DNA of 55,500 nt, filler included, from Malassezia furfur (lineage: Eukaryota): the NCBI GenBank assembly GCA_052055015.1. It is 2 parts of 2 records of this genome, joined end to end, with 100 filler letters (N's around TTAATTAATTAA, not from the genome) between each part and the next. Parts side by side here need not be neighbours in the genome. Positions count along the whole stretch, not along the records: positions 27,846 to 55,500 come from JBQJIT010000115.1; 1 more part is not named here. One strand, given 5' to 3'. Below the pieces are notes generated by a model. The model ran no database searches and had not been told where the DNA came from. It worked only from the letters and a program-made list of their open reading frames with translations. Every line of letters begins with the position of its first letter. The stretch's first letter is position 1. The position numbers were made by a program, and so were the translations under genes. This document shows positions 3,275 to 48,952 of the stretch, piece after piece.

Positions 3275-6045
3275 ATGTCCGGGGGAGAGACACGGTTCGA
3301 GGTCCCTCGCTACGCGCTCGAGGAGCTACGTGCGGAGCCACAGCGGCTCATGCACTACCTTCATGCCCCTAATACACAAGATACGGAGCGCAACGCGTAC
3401 ACTTCAGCGGACTTGCGTCTCTTGCCCCTCTTCGACGAGCGCGCGGAGCATCCCGACCGCAAGGCGGCGGTCGAGCACGCCAACCATGCAAACCACGAAG
3501 CCCTCCAGGCGCTTCAAAATGTCGAAACAAACCTCCGTACGATCCTTTCTTCCGTGCTCCGCGAAGATTACAACGACGACGACTTGGCCGAGCCGCTGCA
3601 GCACTTGGCTGAGCAGCTGCAGGTGCCGACGTCCAGTGCCGCCGCCCAGCAGCGTAAGGGAGCAGATGACGTGGACAATGAGGCGCTAGAGCAACTCTAC
3701 ATTGCGCGCAACTGCACACAGCTCCTCGCCGAGGCGGACGAGGTAGAAGCCCAGGCGATGGCGCGTACGGATGACGTGCAGACTCAAATGAATGCACTGC
3801 AGCGGCTCACGACGCTGGTAGATGGTGTCTCGCTAAGCTACCACAAGGACGGGCTCCAATTTCCGAAGCGTGCACGCGAGGAGCTTGTCCGCCGTCGCGA
3901 TGCGTTGTACGGCCAGTTGGAGCAGCGTTACCACACAGCTTTGCGGGAAGCTTTGCAAGCCATGCAGTGGCCACCGCCAGAGCTCGAGAACCCCGATGCG
4001 ACCAAGAAACGCGATACAAAGCCCGTGCGCATCCTGGGCAATGCGCAATTGGAGGGCGCCTGGTCCGACGTCTGTGAGCTCCAGTTAACCGGCGCAGAGC
4101 TAGGGCTATGCGGTGTACCTAGTTGCGTCAAGTCGCTGCCTTTGGTCTCTACGAGTGAGATTCCTCGGAGCGCGCCTGTCCAGCCTGGCTCTGATGCCTA
4201 CGTGCCTCTCATCGCGGCGACCATTCTTTTCCAGCCGATCCTACTGCGGTTCCGCTACCACTTCGACAGTGACCGTTCTACCAACCGACTCGACAAGCCC
4301 GAGTGGTTTTTGCGGCATATGCTTGCGCTTGTACAGATGAACAGCGAGCTTTTCGCACCGGCACCAGATGCATGGCACCCGGGCGGCCAAATCGCCGAAC
4401 TCTCGCGCCTTCGCAGGCCCGCCTCGCCGAACTTGCCATTCCGCAAGCGTCACATCCTGGCGGACACAGCTGCTGAACTGCTCCACAATGCGCTGTACCC
4501 GCTGCGCAAGAAGATTCACGCCTCGATGCCGTTGCTCGTTTCCGAGCCGGCCTTATTGGCACACAGCATCTTCCAATACCTCACCTTCGATGCCGATCTG
4601 CGCGAAGTGTATCGTCCTGCTTTGTTGGCAGCCGATGGGCAGGGCGCTGTACGACTTGCGGATGATGTGCTAGGCAACGATACCTGGTTTAAGCAATGGC
4701 TCGATGGCGAGCGTGTATTCGCACAACGTCGATTTGACGCGGTGTTGGAATCACCCACGGCATGGACTTTGGTGCAAGCAGACACGCTCACGAACGAAAA
4801 CGATCCCAGCCTCGATGCAGTCGCGGGTCCGACCAGGGATTCGGACGCTGCAGCGGATGCACTGACCACCACCTTGTCCGCCTGCACGTTGACCAACATC
4901 CTAGCCGGTGTCACTGAGCGCTACCAGCCGCTCCATTCGCTTGCCCAGCAATGTGCCTTTGTCATCCATGTGCAACGGCCGCTTTTGTCGCAGTTTGAGG
5001 TGCGCCTTTCACGACACATGGATGCCATGGAAGCCATGAGCAGCATCTTTTCGCGTGCCATCCCTGGCGAAATTGGATCTCTGGATGCCTCATCCAACAA
5101 TGAAGAGGTGCGAGGGACTAAGGGTATCACCCGTGCAATGAAAGCGCTTCTTTCGGCAGAGTTTGTGCGCCAGCAGCTCGAAGAGTGGTCCGAGACGTCT
5201 TTCTTCCTGGACATGAATGAAAACATCGCGTCACTGGACAAATCGTCTACTTTGTACAGATTGATGTTGCCTTCCCAATCGCAGCATGAATTGGACTCGG
5301 CCAGTCTTATCTTGGCCATGAAGCGGGGACTACAACGAGGTGCTCATGTGGCAGCTAACTTGCGGCCCTTGGCCTCTTCGGGCTCCGAGGAGAACGAGTC
5401 CGGTATGACTGCTCCACCGGACAAGCAAGCTTGGGGCGTTTGGGATAAATCACAAGTGCAGTTCCAAGACATTGTCGATCGGTCAAAACGTGCTTTGGAG
5501 CGTTTGGTCGTAACCGAGGTACTGGAATCCCTGCGTCCTTACATTCAACGGTATGTTAACTCACTGACATGCAGTCGATGGGATCGCGACCAAACCCCGG
5601 AGGTGAACACAACGGAAGAGGAAAAACAAGACGAAGACGTTTCGCAGGGTCTCAACGTACCAAGCAAAGAGCTCCTGCCAGCGTTGGCCAAACTTTCTAT
5701 GCTTTTGTCCCATCTGGTGAAATTGTGCCCTCCTCGACTTCTCCTACCATTATACCGGAAAATCGCGGGGTCGCTGAGCAAAGCAGTCATCGAGAAAGTA
5801 CTGATGCCAAGTACGTTGTCATCCTTTCTGACCTTGCAGATGTTCGCCTATCACAACAATTTGCGCCAGGGCAAGCCAAGCGATTCCAGCTGGATGTCCA
5901 ACAGGGGTGGCTCCATGTTGTCAAGGAGTTGTCTGAGCTGCCTCAAGTGACGAGCCGACGTGCTAGACATGAGCCGACGGGCCTCGGCAATAACCCGGAA
6001 TCCGCTTGGAGACTGTTAACCGACGCCAGCCAGCAGGTGTCATAG
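3275..6045 (+). CDS. TIP20: RINT-1/Tip20 family Dsl1 tethering complex subunit; 3 exons
   Basis: Family motif RFRYHFDSDRSTNRLDKPEWF. Introns at 5551-5574 (24 nt, in frame) and 5811-5839 (29 nt) lead into the C-terminal QFAPGQAKRFQLDV. Confidence 0.88.
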
Positions 6046-6165
6046 TTATATATCTGATATCTCATGTCCTATTGCATTCCTTACCGAGGTAGTTTTACCT
6101 TGTATTCCTCGAAAGATGCACTCCACAGTCAATGCATACATGTTTTACAAATAAAACAAAAAAAG

Positions 6166-6250
6166 CTTCCGCGCCGGGAATTGAACCCGGGTCTGGTCCG
6201 AACCAAGTCGTAATGACAAGGACCCGTCATAGCCACTAAACTACGCAGAA
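6166..6250 (-). tRNA. tRNA-Asp(GTC) with a 13-nt intron (6201-6213)
   Basis: Acceptor stem TTCTGCG/CGCGGAA, anticodon stem GGTCC/GGACC, loop TT-GTC-A^C, T arm CCGGG-TTCAATT-CCCGG, discriminator G, and a T7 Pol III terminator downstream. Confidence 0.95.
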
Positions 6251-6460
6251 TGCTCTTGGAACGGGGGAATACTTTGAGATATATAATTCCTTTTGAAGAC
6301 CTCACTTCCTCAATCTGGCCGTCTCGGTATCTAGAAGCCGAAGATGTCGCGAATCTCACTAGGGTATAGAGCACCCAGTCTAATGACATTCCATAATTAC
6401 ACTCTGTTTTAATGCTATGCCCACGAGTATTAAGCCGAACGCTTGGATATATTTTCACAA

Positions 6461-6482
6461 CACACACACACACACACACACA
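6461..6482. repeat. (CA)11 microsatellite
   Basis: Read directly from the sequence. Confidence 0.95.
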
Positions 6483-6580
6483 AACTACAATTTCTTCATG
6501 ATTACCGCAGTACACCAGCTGGCAACGGGTCAAGTGCACATGATTATGTTGGCATAATCCCGAAGCGACATGTATCCAGG

Positions 6581-6665
6581 AGCTCGGTGGTGCAGTGGAT
6601 AGCATGTGGGGCTCATATTAATATGCGGCACCCCAAGGTCGACGGATCGAAACCGTCCTGAGCTA
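6581..6665 (+). tRNA. Initiator tRNA-Met(CAT) with a 12-nt intron (6618-6629)
   Basis: A1:T72 pair (AGCTCGG/CTGAGCT), GGG/CCC anticodon stem, and a T loop ATCGAAA with the A54/A60 eukaryotic initiator hallmarks. A T6 terminator follows. Confidence 0.93.
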
Positions 6666-6741
6666 CATTTTTTGAACAGGAAAAGCTCGTCACATAATGT
6701 GGAGATTGGGGAACAATTTTTTTTTAATGACAGATAGATAT

Positions 6742-8230
6742 TTACGGCATGCTATTTCCAGTGCGTATGGAAGGTGAAACACAAGGGTATCGATAATCTC
6801 CGAATGGAAGTTTGCGCGCGAGTTCATACAGACGGTCCTCGTCTTTAGTTGGGTCGTCGAATTGCAAAATGGAAATGTCATCGGGTTGATTATCATTGTG
6901 TGGATTCTCCATATAAGATGGGAACCGGGATTGTTGATTTAGTTGCGTTCTCTCGTTAGCATCTTGCGTTTGCATGTTATGGTTCACATCATGAGTGCTT
7001 CGTGGCTTTGATGAGCGTTGAACCCAATATTTCCCCTTCCCTTGATCAACGTAGCGCAGACCTGCTCGGCTTCGTCGACTCAATGCGCGCGATTGATACA
7101 CCGTGGTGTCATTGGGCTCGACAGCTTCATAAGTATAATCTGTTCCCCGAAATGTAGAGATGGTATCCGAAATAATGTCACCAATTTCGAAACTGTCCCG
7201 CAGCGCATACAAGAATGGCATACGACCGGCGAGTTTGTAAGGAGGTTGAATGAAATCGAAATAGGAGAATGCATAGGCATGCCCCACAGCGAAGAATGGC
7301 ATCTCTAGGCAAATGAGAGCATCCTGCAAAGCGGCTGAGAGATAAATGTCATCTTGGACCGAGCCAACTGGAAGTCAGTCACTTGCGTTCTGGAAAACGT
7401 ACTGTGTCGGATAATGCCAGCAGCAACAAGAATGGAGATAGTAAGACCTTGCCAGAAACTGAAGAAGATTACGCCCTTGACACACATAAACTTGCCGGCG
7501 ACGTGGAACGGCTTTAGTTCAGAGCGGAGACACATCCAAAAGAGGGTCAGAGAATACAATGCAATGAACACCGAGACATCTAGGGTTAGTAGAGCATGGT
7601 GCGTACTGTAAAGTAATGAGATCCAAGTGTAGCCATTCTCCAAGCCCAACCGACCATCTTCATATTTGCCAATAAACTTCAGAATTACAGTAGCAATGGC
7701 CAAGATAGGTTTGAATTGGACGTATTCTGGAAGTTAGGAGTTTGACGCACGTTGGACGCCACGCTTAACCCAAAGGAAAACGTAAGGGTCGCTCAAATCC
7801 GCCGGCGCCAAGAACAGGCTAAGTGGAAAGATATGAGGCGTAGGATTCCTTCCGCGAAGCATGGTCAAGATTTCACTCTCGCCTGAGAGATATTCCACCA
7901 GCAAGTTGAAAAAGCAGTAGATTACAAAGGCTTCGTACAGATCGCGAACCAAACCGATCATCTCGGCAAGTTGAAGGGAATAGAGCGAAATAGCCGAAGT
8001 AATAGCATATAATAGGGGCCTGGGTGGTCAGTACTCTCTTATATGTGCACGTACATAACAAGAATGCGAACGACATATCGTTGGAGAAAGGGCTTGTAGT
8101 AATGTTTTAATTGCAGCCAGATAGAATATGAGGAGTAAACGGTGGTAAACAGCGTGGCACAGGTGCACAGGAGAAGCAGACGGATAGGAAGAGACCTACC
8201 CGACCCTTCGTCTCTGTCACTAATAAACAT
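6742..8230 (-). CDS. TMEM184/organic solute transporter-alpha (DUF300, Hfl1-like) membrane protein; 5 exons
   Basis: Family motifs LQRYVVRILVM|PLLYAI, RDLYEAFVIYCFF, QYVQFKP, KFMCVKGVIFFSFWQG and QDALICLEM. Introns at 8020-8054, 7727-7750, 7580-7606 and 7368-7402. Confidence 0.9.
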
Positions 8231-8537
8231 GGCGAGGTATGCGCGTACAACACTCTTCACACTCGCGTGTTACAAACTGTCCGCGTCTGCTGTTGTGTGG
8301 AGAACAGTCCAATTTCTGCCCGGATATATGAAAGCATGCCAAATTGTATGGGCAACAGGTCATGTAGCAAGACTCCGCCAACCATCAAAGTGACAGCTAA
8401 GACCATTACAGCATGCCCTTGCAGAGGCTGACTCTCGACACTCAACCGATCGTTGATCCATCTTTTCATACAGGGTCAAATATGGAATGCTACGTCAAGG
8501 CGAGGTAACACGACATGTAAACGCGCAATCAAGGCGT

Positions 8538-9063
8538 TTAGTGCGTCTTCTTCACGCTGGCGGTGTCCCATGCCTCGCGCTCGTCGTCAGCACGCTGGAT
8601 CTCCTTGAGAAGAGGAGTCAAATAGCGAATGTCCTAGGGTCAGCTTTGTATAGAATGACATACGTTCTCAGGGGTGGTCCACTCCTCCTTGGCAAGCGGG
8701 CGCTGCAAGATGGAGCACTGCACCGCGCGCCGGAAGCGGTAGACACGGTCGTATGCCTCGCGCGACTCGAGACGAGAAATGGCCTACACGTTAGTCGTGC
8801 TCTTTCGCGCGCCAACCAAAGCGCGCATATCAAGCAGATACGAACCTTCTGTGCTTGCGCGTTCTCCTCCTCCAGCAGATCATCGTAGCGGAGACCAAAC
8901 TGGCGGTAGCCAGCAGTCTGAGCGTACGCGTTCGCGACCGGCTTGAAGAACTTCAGGAGCGTCGGGGACGACTGGATGTACTTCGCGAACGAAATGGACT
9001 TCTGCAGCAGGTAAATACGGTTAGCATCAACCCAAAAGATCGCAAACAACGTACCGAGGCCAT
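8538..9063 (-). CDS. QCR7: Cytochrome bc1 complex subunit 7; 4 exons
   Basis: Spliced product reads AGYRQFGLRYDDLLEEEN..AISRLESREAYDRVYRFRRAVQCS..LAKEEWTTPEN|DIRYLTPLL. Introns at 9002-9054, 8784-8845 and 8634-8663. Confidence 0.93.
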
Positions 9064-9221
9064 GGTTTAAATTACGCCAGCACCGTAGCCAGGTGGAAGA
9101 TGATTGAAAATAGCTGTAATGCCAATGAATCCGGTCTGTCCCGCGCCGGTGATTACCAACTCGTATTCACGTGACATCACTGCCGCCTCGCCTCCACCTT
9201 CGTGCCGTCAGACCCGGTGGA

Positions 9222-10903
9222 ATGTCAGGCCATGCACGTCCCAGGACAATTGCGGTGCTGGGCGGAGGCATATCTGGCCTTTCTGCGGCATACTCTTTGT
9301 CCAAGTCTCTTGTAAACCATCGGATTATTGTCCTTGAAGCGGGATCTCGGCTAGGTGGCTGGGTACACAGTGAACGAGTTCGTGTGCACGAACCACCTAT
9401 CCAACAAGACGCCACGGCGTTGTTGGAATCGGGTCCTCGGAGCCTTATGCCAGGTAAATACAAAGGGATGCGCACAGTGGAAATGGTGCGTAGTAAGACA
9501 AGCTTATGCAGCTCGCAAATTTGGGGCTTACTGACCGCATGGTGCTCGTTCCCCGCACGTCCAAATCTGCCAAGAACCGTTTTCTACATTATGGTGGAAA
9601 ACTGAACCGTTTGCCGTCCTCTTTATTCGGGGCAATTAGTGCCGCGGTGCGCCTTCCAGTGATACGAGAAACGCTGTCTGGGGTGGTTCGCGAGCCATGG
9701 GTGCCGCGGAAAGCAGCAGCAGATGAGGACGAATCCGTACACTCGCTTGTCTCACGTCGTTTTGGTCAGCCGCTCGCAGACAATCTGGTATCTGCTATGA
9801 TGCATGGAATCTATGCAGGAGACTCGCGCGAATTAAGTGCGCAAAGCATCTTGCCCTTCCTCTGCGACTTGGAAGAAATGCACGGAAGTGTACTGCGTGC
9901 ATTGATGCCCTTCCCCTCGAAGCTGAACAAGAGATTCAAACAAGGAACGAAGAGTCGTTCTGCGGAAGACAAATACAAGGTTCTCGAGGTTTCTAAACGA
10001 ATGGACCCCCAGTTCGTGGAAAAAATGCGCAAGACCAGCATCTATTCTTTCCCTAATGGGCTGCAAGAGATTATTGACGCATTGAGCGACCATGTCATGG
10101 CGACAAAAAATACGGAAGTTCGGCTGGCATCAGCTTGTACACAAATTGAACCCAATGCGGATGGGTTTGCGTTGGGTGTACAAAACGAAGTATGTAAACT
10201 TCAGGTCGACCGTGTCGTGGCTGCGCTTCCAAGTGCCAAGCTTGCCCCACTGTTGCCTGATTTGCCGCACCTTGGACACAATCCAGCAGCTACATTGAGT
10301 GTGGTGGATGTCATCTTGGCACCCCCTGATGGGTCTGCCATGCAGTACAAATTGCCCATCGAAGGCTTTGGGTTTCTGGTGCCTCGCAGCGCCAAACATA
10401 ACCCCGATGAGATCCTTGGTGTCGTGCTGGACAGCGACGCTGTCCCAAACCAAGGGAAACTTGATACAAACAAGAATCCACCATTTATCAAGATGACTGT
10501 CATGATGGGAGGGCCATATTGGCGTGGAAAGAAGCACGGCGAGCTTTCAACGGTCAAGGACGTGGAGGAGCGAGCGCTGCGTACTCTCCACAACATGCTT
10601 GGGATTCCTACATCTATCCTTGAAACACATGTGCGATACCTCTCCGGGCACATTTTAAAAGACACCATTCCACAATATCTCGTCGGACATCCCAAGCGGA
10701 TGCAAGAACTACACGATACACTTGTTTCTGATCCTCGATGGCAGAACCGGCTTACCCTCCTAGGCTTCAGCTATGCGGGTGTCGGGATCAACGATTGTGT
10801 TGCCAATGCGCTAGATGCCAGCGATGCCATTATACAGCAAGAACTCGGCATACGCGGCAGTGATTCGGCGAGCGTCGGGACAGGATTGAGTATGGCAATG
10901 TGA
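9222..10903 (+). CDS. HEM14: Protoporphyrinogen oxidase; 2 exons
   Basis: FAD-binding IAVLGGGISGLSAAY, plus LESGPRSL, GIYAGD, GFGFLVP, IPQYLVGH and GVGINDC. A 26-nt intron lies at 9486-9511. Confidence 0.93.
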
Positions 10904-10985
10904 TATAAAAATGTTTCCGGTGAAACCCTGTTATTTACCAGTCTTATGTACGATAGGTGCTGAAGGGCATGTGTATCGTGTGCAT

Positions 10986-12011
10986 TTATTCCTTGAAGAA
11001 GCTAAGCAGGTCCTGCACGTCTTCCTTAGAACCGAGGAAGATGGGGCAGCGCTCGTGGATGCTCGTGGGCTCAACGTCCAGCACACGCTTCTCACCCGTC
11101 GTGGCGAGACCGCCCGCCTGCTCGGCAAGGAAGGCCATAGGGAAGGCCTCGTAGAGCATACGGAGCTTGCCCTTGGTCGACTTCTTGTCCGCAGGGTAGC
11201 AGAAAATGCCACCGTAAAGGAGCGTGCGGTGTACATCAGCAACCATAGAACCGATGTAACGCGCCGAGTACGGCTTCTTGGGCGGCTCAGGGAACTTGAT
11301 CGACTCGAGGTACTTGGTGATAGGAGGGTGGTAGTACATAGCATTACCCTCGTTAATCGAGTAGATTTGGCCGCGAGATGGAATCTGGATCTTGGGGTGT
11401 GTCAAGATAAACTCGCCAATGCTGTTGTCCAGCGTGAAACCGTCGACACCAGTGCCCGTCGAGAGTACAATGTTGGCCGAAGAACCATACATGCAGTAGC
11501 CGGCAGCCACCATCTCGCGGCCAGGGCGCAGCACATCCTTGATCGAGCCGGACGAGCCCGGCTGAACCTGGTAGATGCCGAAAATGGTACCAACGTTGAC
11601 ACCAGCATCAATGTTGCTCGAACCATCCAACGGGTCGAAAACAAGGCAGTACTTGCCAGTCTCAGCGGAGCGGCGATCAGAGACAATGATCGCCTCCTCC
11701 TCCTCCTCTGACACGAGCACGGCCGACTGACCCGAAGCGACCAAAGCATTGACCATGACTTCGTTGGAGATCACGTCAAGTTTCTTTTGGTCTTCACCTT
11801 GCACGTTCTGCGCGCCAGCCACACCGGTCATGTTGTTCAGACGCGCTTTCCGGACAAGATTCTCAATGACCTTGCATGTAGTCTGCAACGAGTTCAGCAG
11901 AAGCGTGAATTCGCCAGTGACCTGCTTTTGGTTCGCCATCTTGAACCCTTCGTTCAGCACATGACGCGAAAGCGTAATAATGTCCGTCTCCGGCGGTTGG
12001 AAGTCACCCAT
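10986..12011 (-). CDS. FBP1: Fructose-1,6-bisphosphatase
   Basis: Motifs NVQGEDQKKLDV, FDPLDGSSNID, SARYIGSMVADVHRTLLYGG and GKLRMLYE. The likely start is MGDFQ at 12011. Confidence 0.97.
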   Translation of the reverse strand: MGDFQPPETDIITLSRHVLNEGFKMANQKQVTGEFTLLLNSLQTTCKVIENLVRKARLNNMTGVAGAQNVQGEDQKKLDVISNEVMVNALVASGQSAVLVSEEEEEAIIVSDRRSAETGKYCLVFDPLDGSSNIDAGVNVGTIFGIYQVQPGSSGSIKDVLRPGREMVAAGYCMYGSSANIVLSTGTGVDGFTLDNSIGEFILTHPKIQIPSRGQIYSINEGNAMYYHPPITKYLESIKFPEPPKKPYSARYIGSMVADVHRTLLYGGIFCYPADKKSTKGKLRMLYEAFPMAFLAEQAGGLATTGEKRVLDVEPTSIHERCPIFLGSKEDVQDLLSFFKE

Positions 12012-12125
12012 TTTGTGTAAGTTAGGAAGAAACCCCGGACGGCAATGACAGGGACCCTTTTCCCGGTCCCGGCAGGCCAATGCGAGATAATCCAATGTCC
12101 ACCAAGCACGCGGCATTTCCCGAAA

Positions 12126-12140
12126 CGGAGAAATCCGGGG
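12126..12140. promoter_or_regulatory. Candidate CCG-N7-CCG (AcuK/AcuM-type) site overlapping an SYGGRG (CreA/Mig1-type) site upstream of FBP1
   Basis: The sequence CGG-AGAAATC-CGG-GG lies about 115 bp upstream of the FBP1 ATG. This is a motif match only. Confidence 0.4.
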
Positions 12141-12316
12141 TTGTGCATGGTAGCACGTGGTTACCCGTCAGAAAACGCCAAGATCGCAGTGCACGGGCCA
12201 AGGACCGTGCGTCGGGCGACCTAAGGCGTGCTCTAAGTCCTTTGCAGAGCTGCGCTATTGATACAGGCTAATACGAATGCAAATTTGAGTCCTAGCTTAA
12301 CAATTACGCGCTTCCT

Positions 12317-13249
12317 TTACTTGGCGTCCAGCTTCTTGGACACGTCCTCTGCCTTGGAGGACAGCTCCTCCTTAGCCTTGCTGGTCTCCTTCTCTGCAGT
12401 GTCAACAGCGTTGTCAACCGATGACAGAATTGACTTGTGCAACGCCGGAAGCGTATCGGTCTTCAGGTAGTTGAGGATCTTTCCCACACGTTCTTGCACA
12501 GGAGCCTTGGAGTCAAAGGCCTCCTTGTAGGCTTCCTGATAAGTCGACTGGAACGTGTCGATAACAGGAGCAAGGCGCTTTTGGCCCTCAGCGGGAAGGC
12601 TCTTGGCATACTTGTTCAGGTTGTCGAGCTCCGTGAAGAGGCTGTTGACGAGACCCTGTGCCTTCTTCTCGCCTTCAGCAGCGTCAGCCTTACCCTTCTT
12701 CGACCAGTCCTGGTAGAGAGAGTTCAATTTCTCGTTGATAGAGACAATAGTATTGCCAGCCCGCTGCAGGTGGACGTTCTCGTTCTGCTGGAGTTGCTGA
12801 ACGGCCTTGTTCGTCTGATCATAGAGGTGCTGAGCGTTGTCCTTGGCAGACTTCTTGTACGTTGTCATGATATCGTCCGCCTTGACAAAAGGGTGCTTGG
12901 CCAGCGAGTACAGATCCTCCCATTTCACCTCAAACGGGTAAGGAAATTTGCCTTTCACAAAGTCGAGCGTCTGCAGGCATAGGTGGTCCACTTTGTGCAA
13001 CGGCGTACTCAAACGAGTCGTCACGGGCTCAGCCAGCTTGAGCGAGACAGCAAAGACCTCTTCACCCAGCAAAAACGAGCGGTAGAGAAGGCCATGAGCC
13101 TTGATAACAGAGTAGGCGTAGTCCACAGTCTGAGAAACGAGCGGGACTTTGGAAATGAAGCCAACGGTTTCGCTTTCTTTCAGCGAGTTCAGCGCGGCGT
13201 GCTGCTCACTGGAGAGTTGAGGTGTGGTAGTTGTTTGCGTGCTGGTCAT
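12317..13249 (-). CDS. Perilipin-like lipid droplet protein (CAP20/Mpl1-like)
   Basis: N-terminal PAT-like segment (FISKVPLVSQTVDYAY..PLHKVDHLCLQTLDFVKGKFPY) followed by amphipathic helical repeats. Confidence 0.65.
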   Translation of the reverse strand: MTSTQTTTTPQLSSEQHAALNSLKESETVGFISKVPLVSQTVDYAYSVIKAHGLLYRSFLLGEEVFAVSLKLAEPVTTRLSTPLHKVDHLCLQTLDFVKGKFPYPFEVKWEDLYSLAKHPFVKADDIMTTYKKSAKDNAQHLYDQTNKAVQQLQQNENVHLQRAGNTIVSINEKLNSLYQDWSKKGKADAAEGEKKAQGLVNSLFTELDNLNKYAKSLPAEGQKRLAPVIDTFQSTYQEAYKEAFDSKAPVQERVGKILNYLKTDTLPALHKSILSSVDNAVDTAEKETSKAKEELSSKAEDVSKKLDAK

Positions 13250-13621
13250 TTCCGATGATTGCAACAAGATGAGAGGCTAACCCGAGATACAAGGTGACAA
13301 CGTAGTTGTACGTGCTCAGTGAGTCCGTGAAACCTGCACAAGCAAGGCTATAACGTGCATGGATTGGTGTTTTATTGGCAACTTTATCCAAACCCTACCT
13401 AAATGGTGAGTTCACCGTGACACCATAGGGTCCACTCCCCAATTCTATTCGTCAAATTTTACGCCACCCACGTGGACACCGTGCCTTTTTTCCGATAAGG
13501 ACACGGCGCGCATAATTGTGGTGCTAAGTCGTTCGGAGCGCAGCCAATTGTATGGAATAATCTTGGCATGACGCTGGTGGTACGATTTATGGCGGTACAT
13601 TGCTAGTGCGCTAGTTGTATT

Positions 13622-14474
13622 TTAGTTGTCTATCTCGTCATCATCCAATTGGAAGACGGACTCAGTGCCCACTTGACCGGACGCACTTTCGTAGGGCTCA
13701 TCTAGCCAGGTACCATTGGAGCGCTCAGGTGCGTGATCGACACTGGAAGCATCCCAGTCGTTTACCTCGTAAGCATCCTCGTCTGGCCTCATGCCTGTCC
13801 CAAGAGGTGCATACAGCGGCTCAATCTCGCGGTTGGCTCTGTATCGACGCTCCACGTGGTAAGCAACATAGAGCCCAATCGAAGAGCCAGCTAGGTTGGC
13901 TAAAATATCACCGAGCTGGAACGTTTTGTACTGTCATGAGCACCTCCAAGACTCACTGGGAGCAAACTCTGGACAAATTCTGAGCCAATGGCTCCAACAA
14001 CAATGCTTGCCACGAAGGAGATGGCCAGAGGGGTATAACGCCAAATCGATATTCTGCGCACGGACTCCCGTCAGAACCGTATTCCACCCACCTCATCGAG
14101 ATCCCAGATCATATAGCACAAGAAGGATGCCTGTATTAAAATCACTGTAAGTCACGTACAAGCATGAATCCAAAGAAATGCATCACCTTGTCGTTCACAT
14201 AAATGTATCCTTGTGCGGAGGGGTGAAATCTGACGTCAGGGAAAACAACGCACCCGAGAAGACCGAGAAGTACCAAGACTAACACATTGAGTCCAAGGAT
14301 GGCGGGTCTTACGCGAATAGGTAGAGTGTATTGCTCGTGTGAGCGTTGCCAAAGCAACAATCGGGGCAGTGGTATGGACTGCATCGTATAATGCTTAATG
14401 CGCTGCCAAAGGCGAGGGTTGTTGGGCATGATTCCTCGTACTTGGTCCAATGCATCGTTGAGGAGTATAGGCAT
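13622..14474 (-). CDS. VanZ-like family membrane protein; 5 exons
   Basis: Motifs VNDKVMHFFGF and GSEFVQSLLP|YKTFQLGDILANLAG. Introns at 14230-14253, 14131-14159, 14065-14091 and 13931-13956. The start is uncertain (14474 or 14429). Confidence 0.8.
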
Positions 14475-14890
14475 GATGTCTGAGTGGCTAAGACGCAACA
14501 ATTCTTGACTGTTGGACCTGCAGGAAACGCCCGTGCACAGATCCACGGTTTTGGTCTCCGATCCGGAACTTGGTAATCGGCCGAACGAACTTGCTGAAAT
14601 GGGCCGCGCAATTATTCTTGAGGTGGAGAAATAATCAGTTTCATACGTAGGAATAGTGTTCCTAGGGATAGGTAGAGAAGAAGCTATAGACTGTAAAAAG
14701 GGACGAAAAGTCTTGAATGTCATTCACGCAAACATATTCTAGGCATGGGCCTGCCAGCCAAAAAGAAATGGCGATCCTGACATCAAGAAATCTTTCATTG
14801 AGCAATACCGTGGACGGGGGAGGGCGGAGGGATGGGTGTCAAATCCGATCGTGCGGGTTTAAGACGCACGGTCTGAGTACCACGCGGGGA

Positions 14891-16165
14891 TTATTCAGTG
14901 TAATTGGTAGCATCTGTCCGTGTTCGCAGCTGTACCCGTGAGCCCGTCCGTTTAAGACCAGACGGGATGACATTGGTGAGGTATCGCTGCATGCCATCGG
15001 ATGCAACCTGGATTGCCCGCACCGTCTTCCCGTTGCGCACTGGTGTCCCTTCCTGAGATCCTGGTTGCGAATACACGGCCGGTTTAATGGTAGCCTGCAT
15101 ATTTTGCACACCTTGATGGGGTGCCACCACACGCGTGGGGGTGGTAGCGTGGATTGTCGACATCATTGCCGAATGTGACCGCGGTAGATTCCCATCCAGT
15201 GAGCTGAGTTGCATTTGGCTGACGAGCCGGGATGTTGCGTGGAAGCGGTCGTGTTCGTCCAGTTCACGCGCCTCGTCCTCAGGCGATGACATGGCGGAGC
15301 CATTGTCGTCCGTGAGCTCCGCCTCCGAAGAAATGGACGAGTTGCTGCGAGAGTGGTACGACATGGATTTGAGTGCTGCCGTTGGAGTAAGCAGGGGTGC
15401 CGATACCCGTTTTGTCTCGGTCTTTGATGCCCTCTTGGGCGTGTCTGGTTTCGCGTTCTGGTTCCAGCACGGCACTTGCGAAGCAGGTAGATTGCGCAAT
15501 GCAACGCGGCGCTCCGACGCGCGTGCATAACGGTCGCATTCACGGCCGGCCTCGCACCCGCGCAGGAACATCTCGCGGCGACCTGCGTCTGCGCGGCTCT
15601 CGAAACGCCGGAAGAAGGGACTGAAATGAAACATGATCTCCTCTTCTTCAATACGCAGGTCGTAGTCCAGAAGATAGAGCAGCTGTTTCTCCATGAGGTT
15701 CACCTCGGCTTGGGAGAAATAAACACAGTACCGCGTCCAGTGCTTGTTTTTCGGAGAAGAATCGTTCAGGTTCTTTGCAGCGACAATGAGCGTTGCAAGA
15801 AACACGCGGTGGAGCGTGCAAGGCATACCCTTGGCAACTCGCGGCAAGCGGAATTTCAAGCGCTCCAGGTACACCAGTGTGCTAAGTAGCGTAGGGACCT
15901 GGACATTGCTCTTTTCCACCAGCATCATAATGAAGGCCTCCAATGTTGGGAGATTCTGGATCCGGGGTGCACTCGAGGACTCCTGCGATTGCTCACCCGG
16001 ACCAGCCGGCGAGCACTGGATCACATCACTGGCTTGCTTCGCAATGTAAGCCACCATGTCGCGGGACACAGGGCACCGGATGAGATCCGTCAGGGAGGGG
16101 CTGTGCACGATGCGTGGCAGTAGACTTGCCGGGTGACGGCGCATAGCACTGCTGGGAATCGACAT
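14891..16165 (-). CDS. Pho85-type cyclin, Pcl1/Pcl2 family
   Basis: Cyclin box [61 protein letters not shown]. Confidence 0.9.
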
Positions 16166-43900: not shown

Positions 43901-45997
43901 CTAGGGCGAGGTGTAGAGCGCCGGCTTGGCGGCAATGTCCACGTCCCCGTACGGTTTCTCTTGGTCGAGGCGCACGCAGTTCTTCGTGCCGAGCACGAGC
44001 ATCTCGAAAAAGAAACCTGCGGCCGCGCGCCGACTCGCGCTGTGCGCGAGCGTTTGGAAGGTGGTGCGCTCGTCGTGCATGGTGCTCTTGAGCACGTGCA
44101 TCGCCTGCAGCGTGCTCGCATCCCAGTGGGCGAGCGACGCATCCCGTGGCTGTTCGCGCGCGCGCGTCTCGAACGCGGCGAGCGGCGCATCCTCCGCAAC
44201 CGGCGTGGGGTGCCACGCGCGCTCCTCGGCCTCGGGCGTGCCAAGGCGCACCTCGGGCAGATGGCCCGTCCGCGTCGGCGACGGCGCACGGCGGCGTGAC
44301 GAGCGGCGCAGCGCGTGCGGCTCATCCTCTTGCATCGGCTCGGGCTGCGCCGGCGCCGCAGACGGCACGTCGCGGCTCGTGTCCGCGGCAGGAAGCGGCG
44401 GCAGCTCCGGCACATCGTTCATCGAAAAGTCGGCAGGCGGCAGGCTCTTGTCGATGCTCGCGTCGGGACCGAGTGAGGCGGCCGTCGCGTTGCTCACGTC
44501 CGCAAAACGCACGTCCTCGGTAAGCCACGGCGCATCGGACGCACGGCGCCCGACCTCGTGTGGGAACTCGTCCTCGTCGCGGTTCAAGCGCACGGCTTCG
44601 TCGTGGACGTCGCGCAGCCACTGCTGCCGGTCGTAGTGCGGCGGCGCATGCTGCTTGCGGGCGTCGAGGCGCATTGCCTGTGCGATCGACGGCGCATACT
44701 CGGCGTACACGGCGCCCCACATCATCGACATCATGCGCTGCGCGTCGCGCGCCAGGTCCTTGGGGCCGAGGAACAGAGCGAGCTGCGTACGCGACGCCGG
44801 AAGACACCGCAGCTCATGCGGCGACGTGGTCATCGTCGCGGCCGCCGAGCGCAGCTGCAGCATATGCGAGCGGCCCAAGTCCGTGACCGAGTCTTGGAGC
44901 GGACGCTTGCGCTGCCCCTTGGTCGCAGCGTCGGCGCGGGCCAAAGCGGCGCTCCGCAGCTTTGCGGCGGTGCGTGGTGTAAGCGGCGCTTCGGTGCGTG
45001 CGCCGATCGCCTCCTCCAGCGACACGTCGGGCACGGGCGTTGCGGCACGCGGCGGCTCGGTGGGGCGCGGGGGCGTGGCTGCGTTAGCACCAAGGCACGT
45101 ACAGGTATGGGTAGGCAACTCGATCGCGTCCATCGAGAAGTCCATTGACAGGTCGACATCGCCCAGCAGCGAGCGTACATGCTCGGCGGCCGACGTGGGC
45201 GCAAGGGACGCGTCACGGCCCACACCGACGCTTGCGTAGGAGTCGTCGGCATCGGTCGGCGCAACGGACGCGTCACCCACGCTCGTATCCGCGCGACTCG
45301 TGTCCGCCGGACCCGTCTCGGCCCGGCGTGCGTCGCTCGCCGTGGACCGCCGCGACGAACTGCCACGCGGACGCCATTCGCGGGGGCGCTTGGTCGGCGG
45401 ACGCGCCGCTGTGGCATCGTCCTCAATGCCGAGGTCAAACTGCGTCGAGGTATCCAGGTCGGCGAGCGCTCCGCCGAGGAGCGAGTCGGGCTCGTAGGAG
45501 GGTATATCCACGTCCATCGACGCGAGCTGCGTGTCAGGCAGCGTAATGTCGGCCGGCCGCGCCGAGTGCCGTGCGTGGGCCGCCGTGGATGCCGCGGATG
45601 ACGCGTACGCGGGCTCGGGCATCAGCAGGTCGGCGACGCTAAGCGTGTCGGGGAGCGTAATCGCGGCGCGCGATAGGTTTTGCTGGTCGTGCGAGAGGTC
45701 GATGATGGCGTTTGCGCCACGGAACGCGACCTGGATGCGGAGCAGGGCATCATTGCAGTCGTCCTCGAGGTACTTGGCCTTGCGCGAGTAGATCCGCACG
45801 ATGCCCAGCAGCAGTTGCCCACTGAGGCGCAGCGCAACCGGCGTGTTGTCGTCGCCCTCTCCGACGATCGTCTCAACACTCGCCGGGATATCGGTCTGAA
45901 GGAATTGCGCCTTGTTGAGTTTCCGCTCCCAATGTGCCGCGAGCCAGACCCGTGCAAGCGGGCCTTGCTGCGTGAGCAGGACCTCGTTGGGGAGCAT
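43901..45997 (-). CDS. RAD21: Cohesin kleisin Rad21/Scc1; 2 exons
   Basis: N-terminal GPLARVWLAAHWERKL..ALRLSGQLLLGIVRIYSRKAKYL and C-terminal AAGFFFEMLVL..QEKPYGDV. An in-frame 24-nt intron lies at 45079-45102. Confidence 0.95.
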   Translation of the reverse strand: MLPNEVLLTQQGPLARVWLAAHWERKLNKAQFLQTDIPASVETIVGEGDDNTPVALRLSGQLLLGIVRIYSRKAKYLEDDCNDALLRIQVAFRGANAIIDLSHDQQNLSRAAITLPDTLSVADLLMPEPAYASSAASTAAHARHSARPADITLPDTQLASMDVDIPSYEPDSLLGGALADLDTSTQFDLGIEDDATAARPPTKRPREWRPRGSSSRRSTASDARRAETGPADTSRADTSVGDASVAPTDADDSYASVGVGRDASLAPTSAAEHVRSLLGDVDLSMDFSMDAIELPTHTCTCLGANAATPPRPTEPPRAATPVPDVSLEEAIGARTEAPLTPRTAAKLRSAALARADAATKGQRKRPLQDSVTDLGRSHMLQLRSAAATMTTSPHELRCLPASRTQLALFLGPKDLARDAQRMMSMMWGAVYAEYAPSIAQAMRLDARKQHAPPHYDRQQWLRDVHDEAVRLNRDEDEFPHEVGRRASDAPWLTEDVRFADVSNATAASLGPDASIDKSLPPADFSMNDVPELPPLPAADTSRDVPSAAPAQPEPMQEDEPHALRRSSRRRAPSPTRTGHLPEVRLGTPEAEERAWHPTPVAEDAPLAAFETRAREQPRDASLAHWDASTLQAMHVLKSTMHDERTTFQTLAHSASRRAAAGFFFEMLVLGTKNCVRLDQEKPYGDVDIAAKPALYTSP

Positions 45998-46093
45998 CGT
46001 GGTGACCCGCGCGGAAGACGCGTCGCGCGCGCACACGCGCGCACCGCGTCGCGTTGCCATGTGTCACGTGATATTACGTACCTATGGAAAAGC

Positions 46094-46588
46094 GGTCCTC
46101 GGTCCAAGAGTAGTCTCGCGTCGAGTTGCCCCTGTCGAGGCGCCACGGATTGCACTCAAGCTCGGCAGCACCGAGCGACCTCTGGCCGAACCGAGGCGAT
46201 GCGTGGCACAACCAAGTAAACCGTAGGGAAAAGCACGTAGCGCCGCCATCGGCGGCCGGCATCGAGCAGACCCGATTCCAGTCTCGTGCCGCCTAAACCC
46301 CGTGTGTCTCCGAGCGGCTAGGCCGGGGAAAGCGCCACGGGCACGGCACGAGCGTCATTTCTGATGCGGGACAGCTCGGGGCCTTAGGCACCCCGCCCAG
46401 CAGGAGCTGTAGCCGACCGCCGACGCGCGCGCAACACCACCGGGCGCTCGCCTACGACTTGGTCGCGCCGCGCACCGACCGGCTCCCGCACACTTCGGGA
46501 TAGACCAGAGGCGTACGCGGACCTTCCCACTCGCAGAGCTGCTTACGCAGCGTGGTGGCGAGTACCAGTGGCCTTTGGACCGAAGACC
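46094..46588 (-). ncRNA. RPR1: Nuclear RNase P RNA
   Basis: A 14-bp P1 (GGTCTTCGGTCCAA/TTGGACCGAGGACC) encloses CR-I GGGAAGGTCCGCGT, CR-II CAGAAA, CR-III TGGAA, CR-IV TTGAGTGCAATC and CR-V ACTCGACGCGAGACTAC in the correct order. P2, P3, P4, P7, P12, P15 and P19 helices can be drawn. Confidence 0.9.
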
Positions 46589-46675
46589 TCGCCCAGGGAC
46601 CACATGGATCGCCTGGGCAAGGAACGAGCGCCGCCGCCGCGCGCGGTTGGGATCACGTGGATGTACGCTACGAAA

Positions 46676-48952
46676 TTACTCATCATGGTCTTCAATGCCG
46701 GTAGCTTCAAAGTAGGAGGGGGGCAGCTCGAACGCGTCGCCGCCATCGTCGTCGAATGCATTGGCTAGGATATCCATCGTCCACGCCTGTTCCTGCTCGG
46801 CCGTGAGTGGGCCTGCATCGTGGATGCTCGTGTCTGCACTGGCGGTGCCTTCGTGGCCTGACGGCTGCGGCATCGTCGGCTCTCGCGATGCCAGCGACAC
46901 CGTCGATGCACCGGGGTTCTCGCGGTACGGTAGCGGCGGCGGCGACGCAGCATCGTACGGATTCAGTAGCGTTTCCGAGGTAGGCATAGACGCATGGCTG
47001 GGCGTGCTCGACGTCGGCGACATGAGCGGCGCCCCGGTCGGCGGAGTCGGTGGCACCGCGCGCGGCGGGGTTGATGGCCGCGACGCAGTGGCTCCGGGCT
47101 CGGCGTTCGCCAGATGCATCCTCCCGATGCCTGCGACGCCGGCCGCGAGCGGATCAAGGGCTGTCGGCGCAACAGTTCGAGGCGGCAGCGCTGCAGTGCG
47201 GTGCAGCGACGACATCGACGGCTGCCGTGACGATTGCAGCGAGCGCAGTGGCGCGAACGACGACACGGCTGCAGCCGTCGACGGCGACATAGTGTGTGCC
47301 GTGTCGGTACTGGCGATGCTCGCCGCATCAAAGGGCCGGCGAGCCGCGGCACCTGTCGCGACGCGCCCAGCGGCACCGGGAGCCTGGCGTGCCGGACGCG
47401 CCATGGATTGGCTGCGTGCGAGCTCGCGCGCCTGGACGAGGCGCGGAGGCGCACAGTACAGGCCAATTGGGATCGTGCAGAGGGTATGGGCGGTGGGGGT
47501 GTTGAGGGGCTTGACTTGCACAAAGTACTCGAGCCCCAGCAGCTGGGTGTCGAACGACGGGCTGCACCAGCTCGGGAATTGGATCCAGCCGAACCACTGC
47601 TGCATCCCACTTTTGGTGGCCGGTGACGCAAGCACCTTAGCATGCGATATGTACTGGGTATGAGCAGCCGAGGAGCGGGCGCGCAGGTGCACCTTTTGCA
47701 CGAGGTACACTTCGGGATGTACCACGAGCGGCATGCCCGCGCTGTGCACGAGCGTCAGCACGAACGGGATGGTGGAGCGCAGCGGAAATACGGCCAACGG
47801 CTTTCCGGGAAGTGAGATGGCCCACCGCTCTTCCTTGGGCTTGTTCACGCCAAAGAGCTTTTCGACGAAGGACCGCTTGGTATTTTGCCCCAGGGACGCC
47901 TGGTTCAGCGGGAAGTACTCCGTGAGCCAGCGGTTCGCTGGTTCCGCAAGGTCCTTGGGAAGCACCACGGGGCCATGGATCGTGTGAACCATGCGCTGGA
48001 TCTGCATCGAGAGCGCCTGGCGCTGGATAATGGTGCTGCTGATCTTGTCGGGCGGCGGTGGCAGGTAGATGAACGGCACAAGCAGGCGGTCGTTCGAGCG
48101 GAAGAAACCGGGGCGCCCAACGGTCACCTTGATGTACCATTTGACACTTGCCCACTCCTCTGTCGCGCCCTTGTGCCGCTTGTCGCTTTCCAGCACATAA
48201 CTCGAGGGGTAGTTGGCACCGACGCCAGGGAAGCCGAGTGGGAGCGTGTTCTTGCCTGTGCCTGACTCAGGAATGTCAAACTTGAACTTCCACTCGTAGA
48301 TCCCCGCATGCTCGAGCTTGCCCGAGGTATTGGGCTTCGGTGCATCTTGCTCTGTGGCCCGGAAAAGCGCGTCGGTTGCCTTGAGCCGGTCATCGATGCT
48401 GAGCAGGACCTGTTCGCGTGAGGAGGTCGACGTCTCGGACGGCGTGAGACCCGAGAACGTCGGCATATCGCCGTCGGTCGCCTGCGAAGCCTTGGGCACC
48501 TGCACCGACACGACCGCCTTCAGCTTGACGCGCACTTCGTTCGCGCGGTCCTTATCCGAGCAGTGCAGAATAATACGGCCAACAATCGAGCCACGCCCAC
48601 GCGCCTTGGAACCACCCATGTACGTCGGCAGCGCCTGCGGTGGGGTTTGCAGCTGGACGAGAAGCTTACCCGTCGCGCCCGCGTACGTATGCACCGTCTT
48701 GAGCTCCGGCGCAGGGCCCGCGCGGGCGCCGCGGTTCACGGGCACCGTCGGGTACGCGGCGGAGATGATGGCCGGCGCGGCCGTGCTGCGCGTGTCGGTT
48801 GAGCCCGAGGAGTAGATCGACGCGGCGCGCACCGACGCCGCGTCGCTTGCCGGGCGTTTGGCGTTGGATGCTAGGGTCTGGCTCATGGGCATAGATAGCA
48901 CGGCAGTGGCGGTGGGCGATGACTGCACGAGTCTCTGGTCGTTGTATGACAT
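46676..48952 (-). CDS. Alpha-arrestin-like ubiquitin ligase adaptor
   Basis: Arrestin-N-like strands (YEWKFKFDIP, YPSSY, SVKWYIKVTVGRPGFFRSNDRLLVPFIYLP) and a C-terminal PY motif (LPPSY). Confidence 0.75.
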   Translation of the reverse strand: MSYNDQRLVQSSPTATAVLSMPMSQTLASNAKRPASDAASVRAASIYSSGSTDTRSTAAPAIISAAYPTVPVNRGARAGPAPELKTVHTYAGATGKLLVQLQTPPQALPTYMGGSKARGRGSIVGRIILHCSDKDRANEVRVKLKAVVSVQVPKASQATDGDMPTFSGLTPSETSTSSREQVLLSIDDRLKATDALFRATEQDAPKPNTSGKLEHAGIYEWKFKFDIPESGTGKNTLPLGFPGVGANYPSSYVLESDKRHKGATEEWASVKWYIKVTVGRPGFFRSNDRLLVPFIYLPPPPDKISSTIIQRQALSMQIQRMVHTIHGPVVLPKDLAEPANRWLTEYFPLNQASLGQNTKRSFVEKLFGVNKPKEERWAISLPGKPLAVFPLRSTIPFVLTLVHSAGMPLVVHPEVYLVQKVHLRARSSAAHTQYISHAKVLASPATKSGMQQWFGWIQFPSWCSPSFDTQLLGLEYFVQVKPLNTPTAHTLCTIPIGLYCAPPRLVQARELARSQSMARPARQAPGAAGRVATGAAARRPFDAASIASTDTAHTMSPSTAAAVSSFAPLRSLQSSRQPSMSSLHRTAALPPRTVAPTALDPLAAGVAGIGRMHLANAEPGATASRPSTPPRAVPPTPPTGAPLMSPTSSTPSHASMPTSETLLNPYDAASPPPLPYRENPGASTVSLASREPTMPQPSGHEGTASADTSIHDAGPLTAEQEQAWTMDILANAFDDDGGDAFELPPSYFEATGIEDHDE

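Follow-up and report, generated by a model that had tools for sequence, protein, structure and literature searches.

Background

RNase P trims tRNA precursors, and its RNA is a universal ribozyme. The closest described relatives of the RNA analyzed here are the nuclear RNase P RNAs of the yeast RPR1 and human H1 type, which are represented in Rfam by the family RF00009. The two domains of RNase P are described as thought to act jointly, as a caliper, on the stack of the tRNA acceptor and T arms (PMC4919913). Enlarged or altered forms have been described: the Candida glabrata RNA of 1149 nt is called the largest (PMC3001073), the Plasmodium RNA is described with extended P3, eP8', P12 and eP19 (PMC1636426), the fungal 'type B' RNA is described with an added P8' stem in some fungi (Bcheck, PMC2996960), and an analysis of RNase P RNA accretion from 2026 names the P12 tip and P3 as sites of eukaryotic expansions (PMC12974513).

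The window, by which we mean the whole 55.5 kb stretch of Malassezia furfur DNA that was analyzed, contains on its minus strand a nuclear RNase P RNA gene of 495 nt, which is flanked by an arrestin-like ORF and a Rad21 ORF (Table 1). Its RNA resembles the RF00009 type in having CR-I to CR-V, P1-P3, P7-P12, eP15 and eP19 in canonical order, together with strands that could pair as P4. It differs in that P7 reaches about 70 bp by way of a 55-62 bp helix where a few bp are usual, in an extra hairpin after the P7 5' strand, in an unpaired A in the P4 3' strand, and in a length of 495 nt against a model consensus of 301 columns, the window copy being undetected at the curated threshold. With the C. 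glabrata and Plasmodium RNAs, and with an RNA of another fungus found in our scan (L005), it has in common that a ribozyme which is otherwise conserved has been enlarged in a lineage-specific way. The published expansion sites that we encountered (P3, eP8', the P12 tip and eP19) are peripheral arms, whereas the stem expanded here joins the two domains; the insert of about 400 nt in L005 likewise sits on a peripheral arm, eP15, and P7 of that RNA is a short 4-bp helix. The 'type B' RNAs have a comparable extra stem near P8, and hairpin A of the window RNA, when set against the legend that describes P8', may be this stem; the passages describing P8', however, have no long-range helix flanking the cruciform. 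Finally, the rRNA-style expansion segments of the accretion analysis are, as presented there, comparable in that helices were added stepwise and in a lineage-specific manner without altering the core, but P7 is absent from the list of expansions given in that source, and the addition described here is in series with the core instead of forming a side branch. Our literature search retrieved no text on a P7 expansion or on the RNase P RNA of such fungi; Piccinelli 2005 and Kachouri 2005 may already show one.

Identification of the RNase P RNA gene

The preliminary description of this locus, made from the window sequence, had proposed an enlarged nuclear RNase P RNA of about 495 nt on the minus strand that standard annotation may miss. 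All of this was borne out: CR-I, CR-IV and CR-V equal the family consensus, related RNAs pass the RF00009 threshold, the core covaries, and the window itself gives no RF00009 match at the gathering score. P1, P7, P12 and CR-I to CR-V can all be read on the minus strand, at positions that deviate by no more than 1-2 nt from those given in that description.

At the Rfam gathering thresholds a tRNA was the only match in the whole window. The RF00009 gathering cut-off, 28 bits, serves annotation as an operational threshold and does not define a structure. Permissive E-value searching recovered two partial, non-significant RF00009 pieces, 46099-46270 (8.1 bits, E 3.4) and 46495-46583 (7.3 bits, E 6), and no full-length match to the window RNA at any threshold tried. 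This shortfall goes together with about 190 nt of insertions, the model being unable to bridge the inserted RNA. Taken by itself, the lack of a significant match in the window speaks against the assignment; what outweighs it is that the RNA is orthologous to relatives which pass the threshold.

The window CR-I (UGGGAAGGUC), CR-IV (UUGAGUGCAAU) and CR-V (AGACUACUCU) are exactly the RF00009 consensus and are invariant in all seven sequences that we aligned. CAGAAA of CR-II and UGGAA of CR-III, which flank P12 on the P10/11 stem, are likewise invariant; CCAGAAA of the related locus L004 aligns to CR-II of the RF00009 model. A pattern built from CR-IV and CR-V has a single occurrence in the 55.5 kb window, where 100 shuffles give an expectation of 0.00, and the Rfam scan and blastn agree that the RNase P-type locus is unique within the window. 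A 497-nt stretch folds with z = -5.09, none of 100 shuffled sequences folding as well, and folding favors the sense strand over the antisense strand by 39 kcal/mol.

Related loci in metagenome contigs

The CR-IV...CR-V pattern was used to scan metagenome contigs and returned 29 loci, 20 of which were run against Rfam at gathering thresholds, with RF00009 matches in 10. Nine of the 29 share the 3'-region variant of the window, with CR-I located 373-410 nt upstream of CR-IV (369 nt in the window). These nine loci (L003, identical to L007 and L027; L004; L008; L009, identical to L011; L015; and L019) represent six distinct sequences and three further lineages. All six sequences score above the RF00009 gathering cut-off as full-length matches (29.2-31.7 bits, 489-529 nt), and in blastn searches the window RNA matched the related RNAs with E values from 1e-12 to 1e-22 and had no second locus in the window. 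An arrestin-like gene lies immediately upstream in nine of nine, at 45-52% amino-acid identity in eight; the match in L019 has 70% identity over 40 residues, which is all that fits in the locus. Rad21 was not found in the available flanks of any of the nine. Since the window RNA matches these RNAs by blastn and shares their arrestin-like neighbor, it is an orthologue of RNAs accepted by Rfam as nuclear RNase P.

The enlargement had been proposed to be lineage-specific, and the sizes agree with this: the range given above for the related lineages compares with 262-370 nt for other fungal RNase P RNAs of the same scan (262 nt at 88 bits, 370 nt at 84.6 bits and one truncated), next to which stands one RNA of 756 nt at 46.1 bits. 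This 756-nt RF00009 RNA belongs to another fungus (L005:136-891, minus strand) and has its insert at the eP15 position; the related L014 and L023 gave no RF00009 match at the gathering threshold. The 370-nt RNA (L021:497-1167) lies in the rDNA intergenic spacer, between LSU/5S and SSU, and looks like the case described for Auricularia, where an RNase P RNA gene is located in the rDNA spacer (PMC9849065). In L013 a 5S gene follows the RNase P RNA after about 50 nt.

Table 1. [quoted passage not shown]
Feature	Position	Strand	Description	Pairs changed on both sides
Arrestin-like ORF	46676-48952	minus	Arrestin_N domain, E 1.1e-06	
CACGTGAT motif	46652-46659	minus	E-box-like; upstream of RNA, after arrestin-like stop codon	
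Whole RNA	46094-46588	minus	495 nt, P1 5' end to P1 3' end	
P1	46588-46575 / 46107-46094	minus	14 bp; 0/14 pairs broken in window	9/14
P2	46572-46565 / 46149-46142	minus	5' strand GCCACUGG; one U-C mismatch in window	1/8
P3	46564-46528	minus	Proximal stem, internal loop, distal stem-loop	3/5 (distal)
CR-I	46530-46514	minus	Includes P4 5' strand GGUCCGCG (46516-46523)	
P7 base helix	46512-46503 / 46187-46178	minus	CCUCUGGUC/GGCCAGAGG = 46503-46511 with 46179-46187	3/10
Hairpin A	46500-46484	minus	Extra hairpin directly after P7 5' strand	2/6
Long helix (LH), 5' strand	46483-46412	minus	First insertion (seg1), between P7 5' strand and P8	
P8 hairpin	46407-46395	minus	GCUC[CUGCU]GGGC	1/4
P9 hairpin	46394-46378	minus		2/6
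P10/11	46377-46367 / 46274-46264	minus	Two U-U mismatches in window	1/3 (P10); 1/6 (P11)
CR-II	46362-46355	minus	AGAAAUGA	
P12	46352-46283	minus	Outer stem CUCGUGCCG(U)/(G)CGGCACGAG	0/9, 4/14, 3/5 (three segments)
CR-III	46282-46275	minus	ACUGGAAU	
LH, 3' strand	46260-46190	minus	seg2, between P10/11 3' strand and P7 3' strand; 83-nt insertion of the preliminary description	
eP15 hairpin	46176-46160	minus		1/5
CR-IV	46159-46149	minus	UUGAGUGCAAU	
eP19 hairpin	46141-46128	minus		One-sided variation only (seven sequences)
CR-V	46120-46107	minus	P4 3' strand CGCG-A-GACU; unpaired A at 46116	
T4 run	46088-46091	minus	2 nt past P1; possible Pol III stop	
CACGTGAT, second copy	46065-46072	plus	About 20 nt downstream of RNA (window)	
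Rad21 ORF	43901-46060	minus	Rad21_Rec8_N, E 2.6e-34; Rad21_Rec8, E 9.1e-14	

Core fold and covariation

The window and the six distinct relatives were aligned with MAFFT (alignment A1, 558 columns, four lineages), and P2 and P4 were entered as pseudoknots. In the MAFFT alignment the window is out of register by two columns over the outer half of P7 and over parts of P12; when its sequence is read without the alignment, P7 of the window is a perfect 9-10 bp helix. The curated core consists of 113 pairs (P1-P4, P7-P12, eP15 and eP19), and 95.4% of its cells across the seven sequences are standard pairs in a structure that was derived in part from these same sequences. Double-sided changes were seen at 31 core pairs, where shuffling gave a mean of 11.5 and none of 500 shuffles reached 31, a result that is inflated by kinship among seven sequences from four lineages. 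As a control, the partners were slid by 1-3 columns, which gave 38-44% pairing and 1-6 double-sided changes.

The distribution of double-sided changes over the helices is given in Table 1. The proximal part of P3 is invariant in all seven sequences and carries no covariation signal either way. The same applies to P4, for which 8 pairs plus one unpaired A are possible in seven of seven sequences, all 8 being invariant. The unpaired A is an insert relative to the Rfam consensus and is itself invariant in all seven, so that the one-nucleotide bulge reported on the P4 3' strand in the preliminary description is real.

Several pairings were considered and rejected. RNAalifold, which cannot draw pseudoknots, paired ACUCG with UGAGU of CR-IV and covered the P4 3' strand with a CUCG/CGAG hairpin; canonical P3 and P4 were preferred, the rejected and the canonical pairings being all invariant and beyond the reach of covariation. 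L015 breaks the P8 drawn by RNAalifold (columns 195-198 with 203-206), while the P8 that we adopted (columns 197-200 with 206-209) has a double change from G-C to A-U in that sequence. A hairpin CAGCUC/GAGCUG that would enclose P8 and P9 in the window clashes with P8 and P10, both of which are backed by double changes in L015.

The catalytic half of the RNA is canonical and consists of P1, P2, P3 in its helix-loop-helix form, a P4 pseudoknot that CR-I and CR-V would make, eP15, CR-IV and eP19. Equally canonical is the substrate-recognition core, a cruciform of P8, P9, P10-11 and P12 in which P12 is flanked by CR-II and CR-III. Removing the insertions and hairpin A leaves about 300 nt, which is the consensus size of the family. 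Distal P12 contains an almost invariant motif, GCUUUCCCCG...CGCUCGGA.ACAC, in seven of seven sequences, placed around a covarying terminal hairpin; this motif may be a protein-binding site. Inspection of the P12 sequence for a K-turn found no tandem G-A motif. At the base junction, immediately ahead of the P7 3' strand, the L004 group and L015 carry one more small hairpin (hairpin D), which the window and L003 are without.

A predicted long helix between the two insertions

The cruciform has an insertion of about 72 nt on either side, directly inward of P7; the two insertions are complementary and form an irregular helix of 55-62 bp. The helix in the window has 61 bp (46412-46483 with 46190-46260) and extends P7, with the P8/P9/P10-12 cruciform on top and the small hairpin A at its base. 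The preliminary description had taken the 3' stretch for an 83-nt insertion closed on itself by CGAUGC/GCAUCG and had spoken of an expansion of the specificity domain. Neither point is supported: the stretch is the 3' strand of a long-range helix with the other insertion, and the extra helix is not inside the specificity domain proper.

A rival arrangement, along the lines first proposed, is an RNase P RNA with independent local hairpins (the 83-nt element and the hairpin after the P7 5' strand) and no long-range helix. Both hexamers are present in the window RNA (CGAUGC at 46259-46264 and GCAUCG at 46197-46202), the 5' segment of the window folds well when alone (-46.6 kcal/mol for 94 nt), and junction hairpins would keep the canonical spacing of the two domains. 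Forcing the local closure, however, yields -214.1 kcal/mol compared with -249.4 kcal/mol for the fold with LH, a loss of 35 kcal/mol that also disturbs P8-P10, and the 3' segment folded freely on its own does not use the CGAUGC/GCAUCG closure. Co-folding the cognate strands gains 26-38 kcal/mol over separate folds in all four lineages (-37.8 in the window, -26.2 in L003, -25.7 in L004 and -34.6 in L015), whereas 12 non-cognate strand combinations gain just -3.0 to -17.4 kcal/mol and dinucleotide-shuffled seg2 strands gain on average -8.2 to -9.4 kcal/mol, with none of 100 shuffles reaching the observed value in each of the four lineages. Full-length folds made without any constraint contain 61, 55, 62 and 61 seg1:seg2 pairs in the four lineages. 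We consider the local-hairpin arrangement improbable.

The long-range helix is also specific to the RNA strand. G-U pairs make up 12-13 of the 55-61 pairs of the two-strand co-folds, and the antisense strands pair 23-37 kcal/mol more weakly; therefore this is a strand-specific helix at the RNA level and not a DNA inverted repeat. The two segments are nearly unalignable between the window and its relatives (31-43% identity, against 74-75% in the core), and despite this poor alignment RNAalifold recovered 19 LH pairs on A1, 8 of them changed on both sides. In the four near-identical sequences, 59 LH pairs are 99.6% paired; nine vary on one side, with one cell broken, and none has changed on both sides, the shuffle control for this set (360/500) being uninformative. 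The helix has an interruption about 22-24 bp below its top in each of the four lineages, which leaves a lower part of 33-37 bp; the interruption consists of small bulges in the window and of a branch hairpin of 4-5 bp in the other lineages.

The potential of the two strands to pair is present in all four lineages and has been conserved. From the fact that length and pairing are kept in these lineages while the sequence is near random, we infer that the LH would be a selected expansion segment. A straight LH would hold the active site and the CR-II/CR-III platform far apart, and a straight spacer of 60 bp is hard to reconcile with the caliper-like way in which RNase P measures tRNA. We conjecture that the LH would bend or fold back at its mid-helix discontinuity, so that both halves of the ribozyme could still grip one tRNA; folding back would restore the spacing in three dimensions, and we favor it because length and pairing are kept where sequence is not and because the discontinuity is conserved. 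Alternatively, the specificity domain would sit on a long tether held by proteins. Tentatively, and with somewhat less than even confidence, we suggest that RNAs of this kind form a new architectural class, in which a helix of conserved length, about 60 bp, connects the two domains and is either folded back or a protein-held tether.

Genomic setting and status of the gene

The Pfam domain of the Rad21 ORF begins at residue 22, which is a Met (codon at 45997), and on this basis Met 22 is probably the true start of Rad21, leaving about 97 nt from the RNA to the Rad21 coding sequence. The relatives lack a conserved counterpart of the T-run after P1 at the equivalent position, and simple patterns for an upstream TATA and for Pol III A and B boxes gave no match in the five sequences examined. 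All four lineages (the window and the upstream flanks of L003, L004, L008 and L015) have the motif CACGTGAT in the interval from the arrestin-like stop codon to the RNA; it is not over-represented within the window, where 4 matches compare with 2.3 expected, and may act as a promoter or insulator. The G+C content of the window is about 64-66% except in one lower-GC stretch (positions 5000-15000, 44-56%, with the minimum of 44% at 6000-6999), inside which lies a tRNA gene (6166-6250, minus strand) that contains an intron. These features suggest a fungus rich in GC and poor in introns.

A score below the Rfam threshold could also be expected of a decaying or redundant copy, either a pseudogene or a paralogue, with the working RNase P RNA elsewhere in the genome. 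The U-C mismatch in P2 and the U-U mismatches in P10/11 are absent from the relatives and point in that direction, and our locus search covered the 55.5 kb window of this genome. Decay is contradicted by the state of the RNA, in which all five conserved regions are intact and none of the 14 P1 pairs is broken, by the compensatory nature of the changes that separate the window from the other lineages in P1, P3b, P7, P12 and the LH, and by its syntenic position beside the arrestin-like gene, as in nine of nine related loci. A decaying copy thus appears a decidedly poor explanation. The RNase MRP RNA is a paralogue that has P1-P4 and most of its proteins in common with RNase P, and CR-I, CR-V, P3 and P4 in common with the P RNA. 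It is a highly implausible identity, since no RF00030 match was among those listed at E up to 10 (where matches of one clan overlap, the listing shows the higher-scoring family), RF00009 was the best of the clan for the window and all relatives, and CR-II (AGAAA) and CR-III (UGGAA), which domain 2 of an MRP RNA would lack, flank P12 on the P10/11 stem in the layout of an RNase P specificity domain.

We hold with good confidence that the locus encodes a functional nuclear RNase P RNA which carries the long helix on P7 and which would be expressed and catalytically active. Judged by its family membership, the RNA would assemble with Pop/Rpp proteins and would remove the 5' leader of pre-tRNA.

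Implications

The RNA itself is very well known; the structural variant appears to be new. The expansion is in series with the core, and its 55-62 bp have been kept while the neighboring protein is about 50% identical, which raises the question of how the geometry of the enzyme is preserved. The gene is invisible here to annotation at the Rfam threshold, and inventories of non-coding RNAs in GC-rich relatives may wrongly call the RNase P RNA missing. If these RNAs do form a new architectural class, they would serve as a natural experiment that bears on the rigidity required in the coupling of the two RNase P domains.
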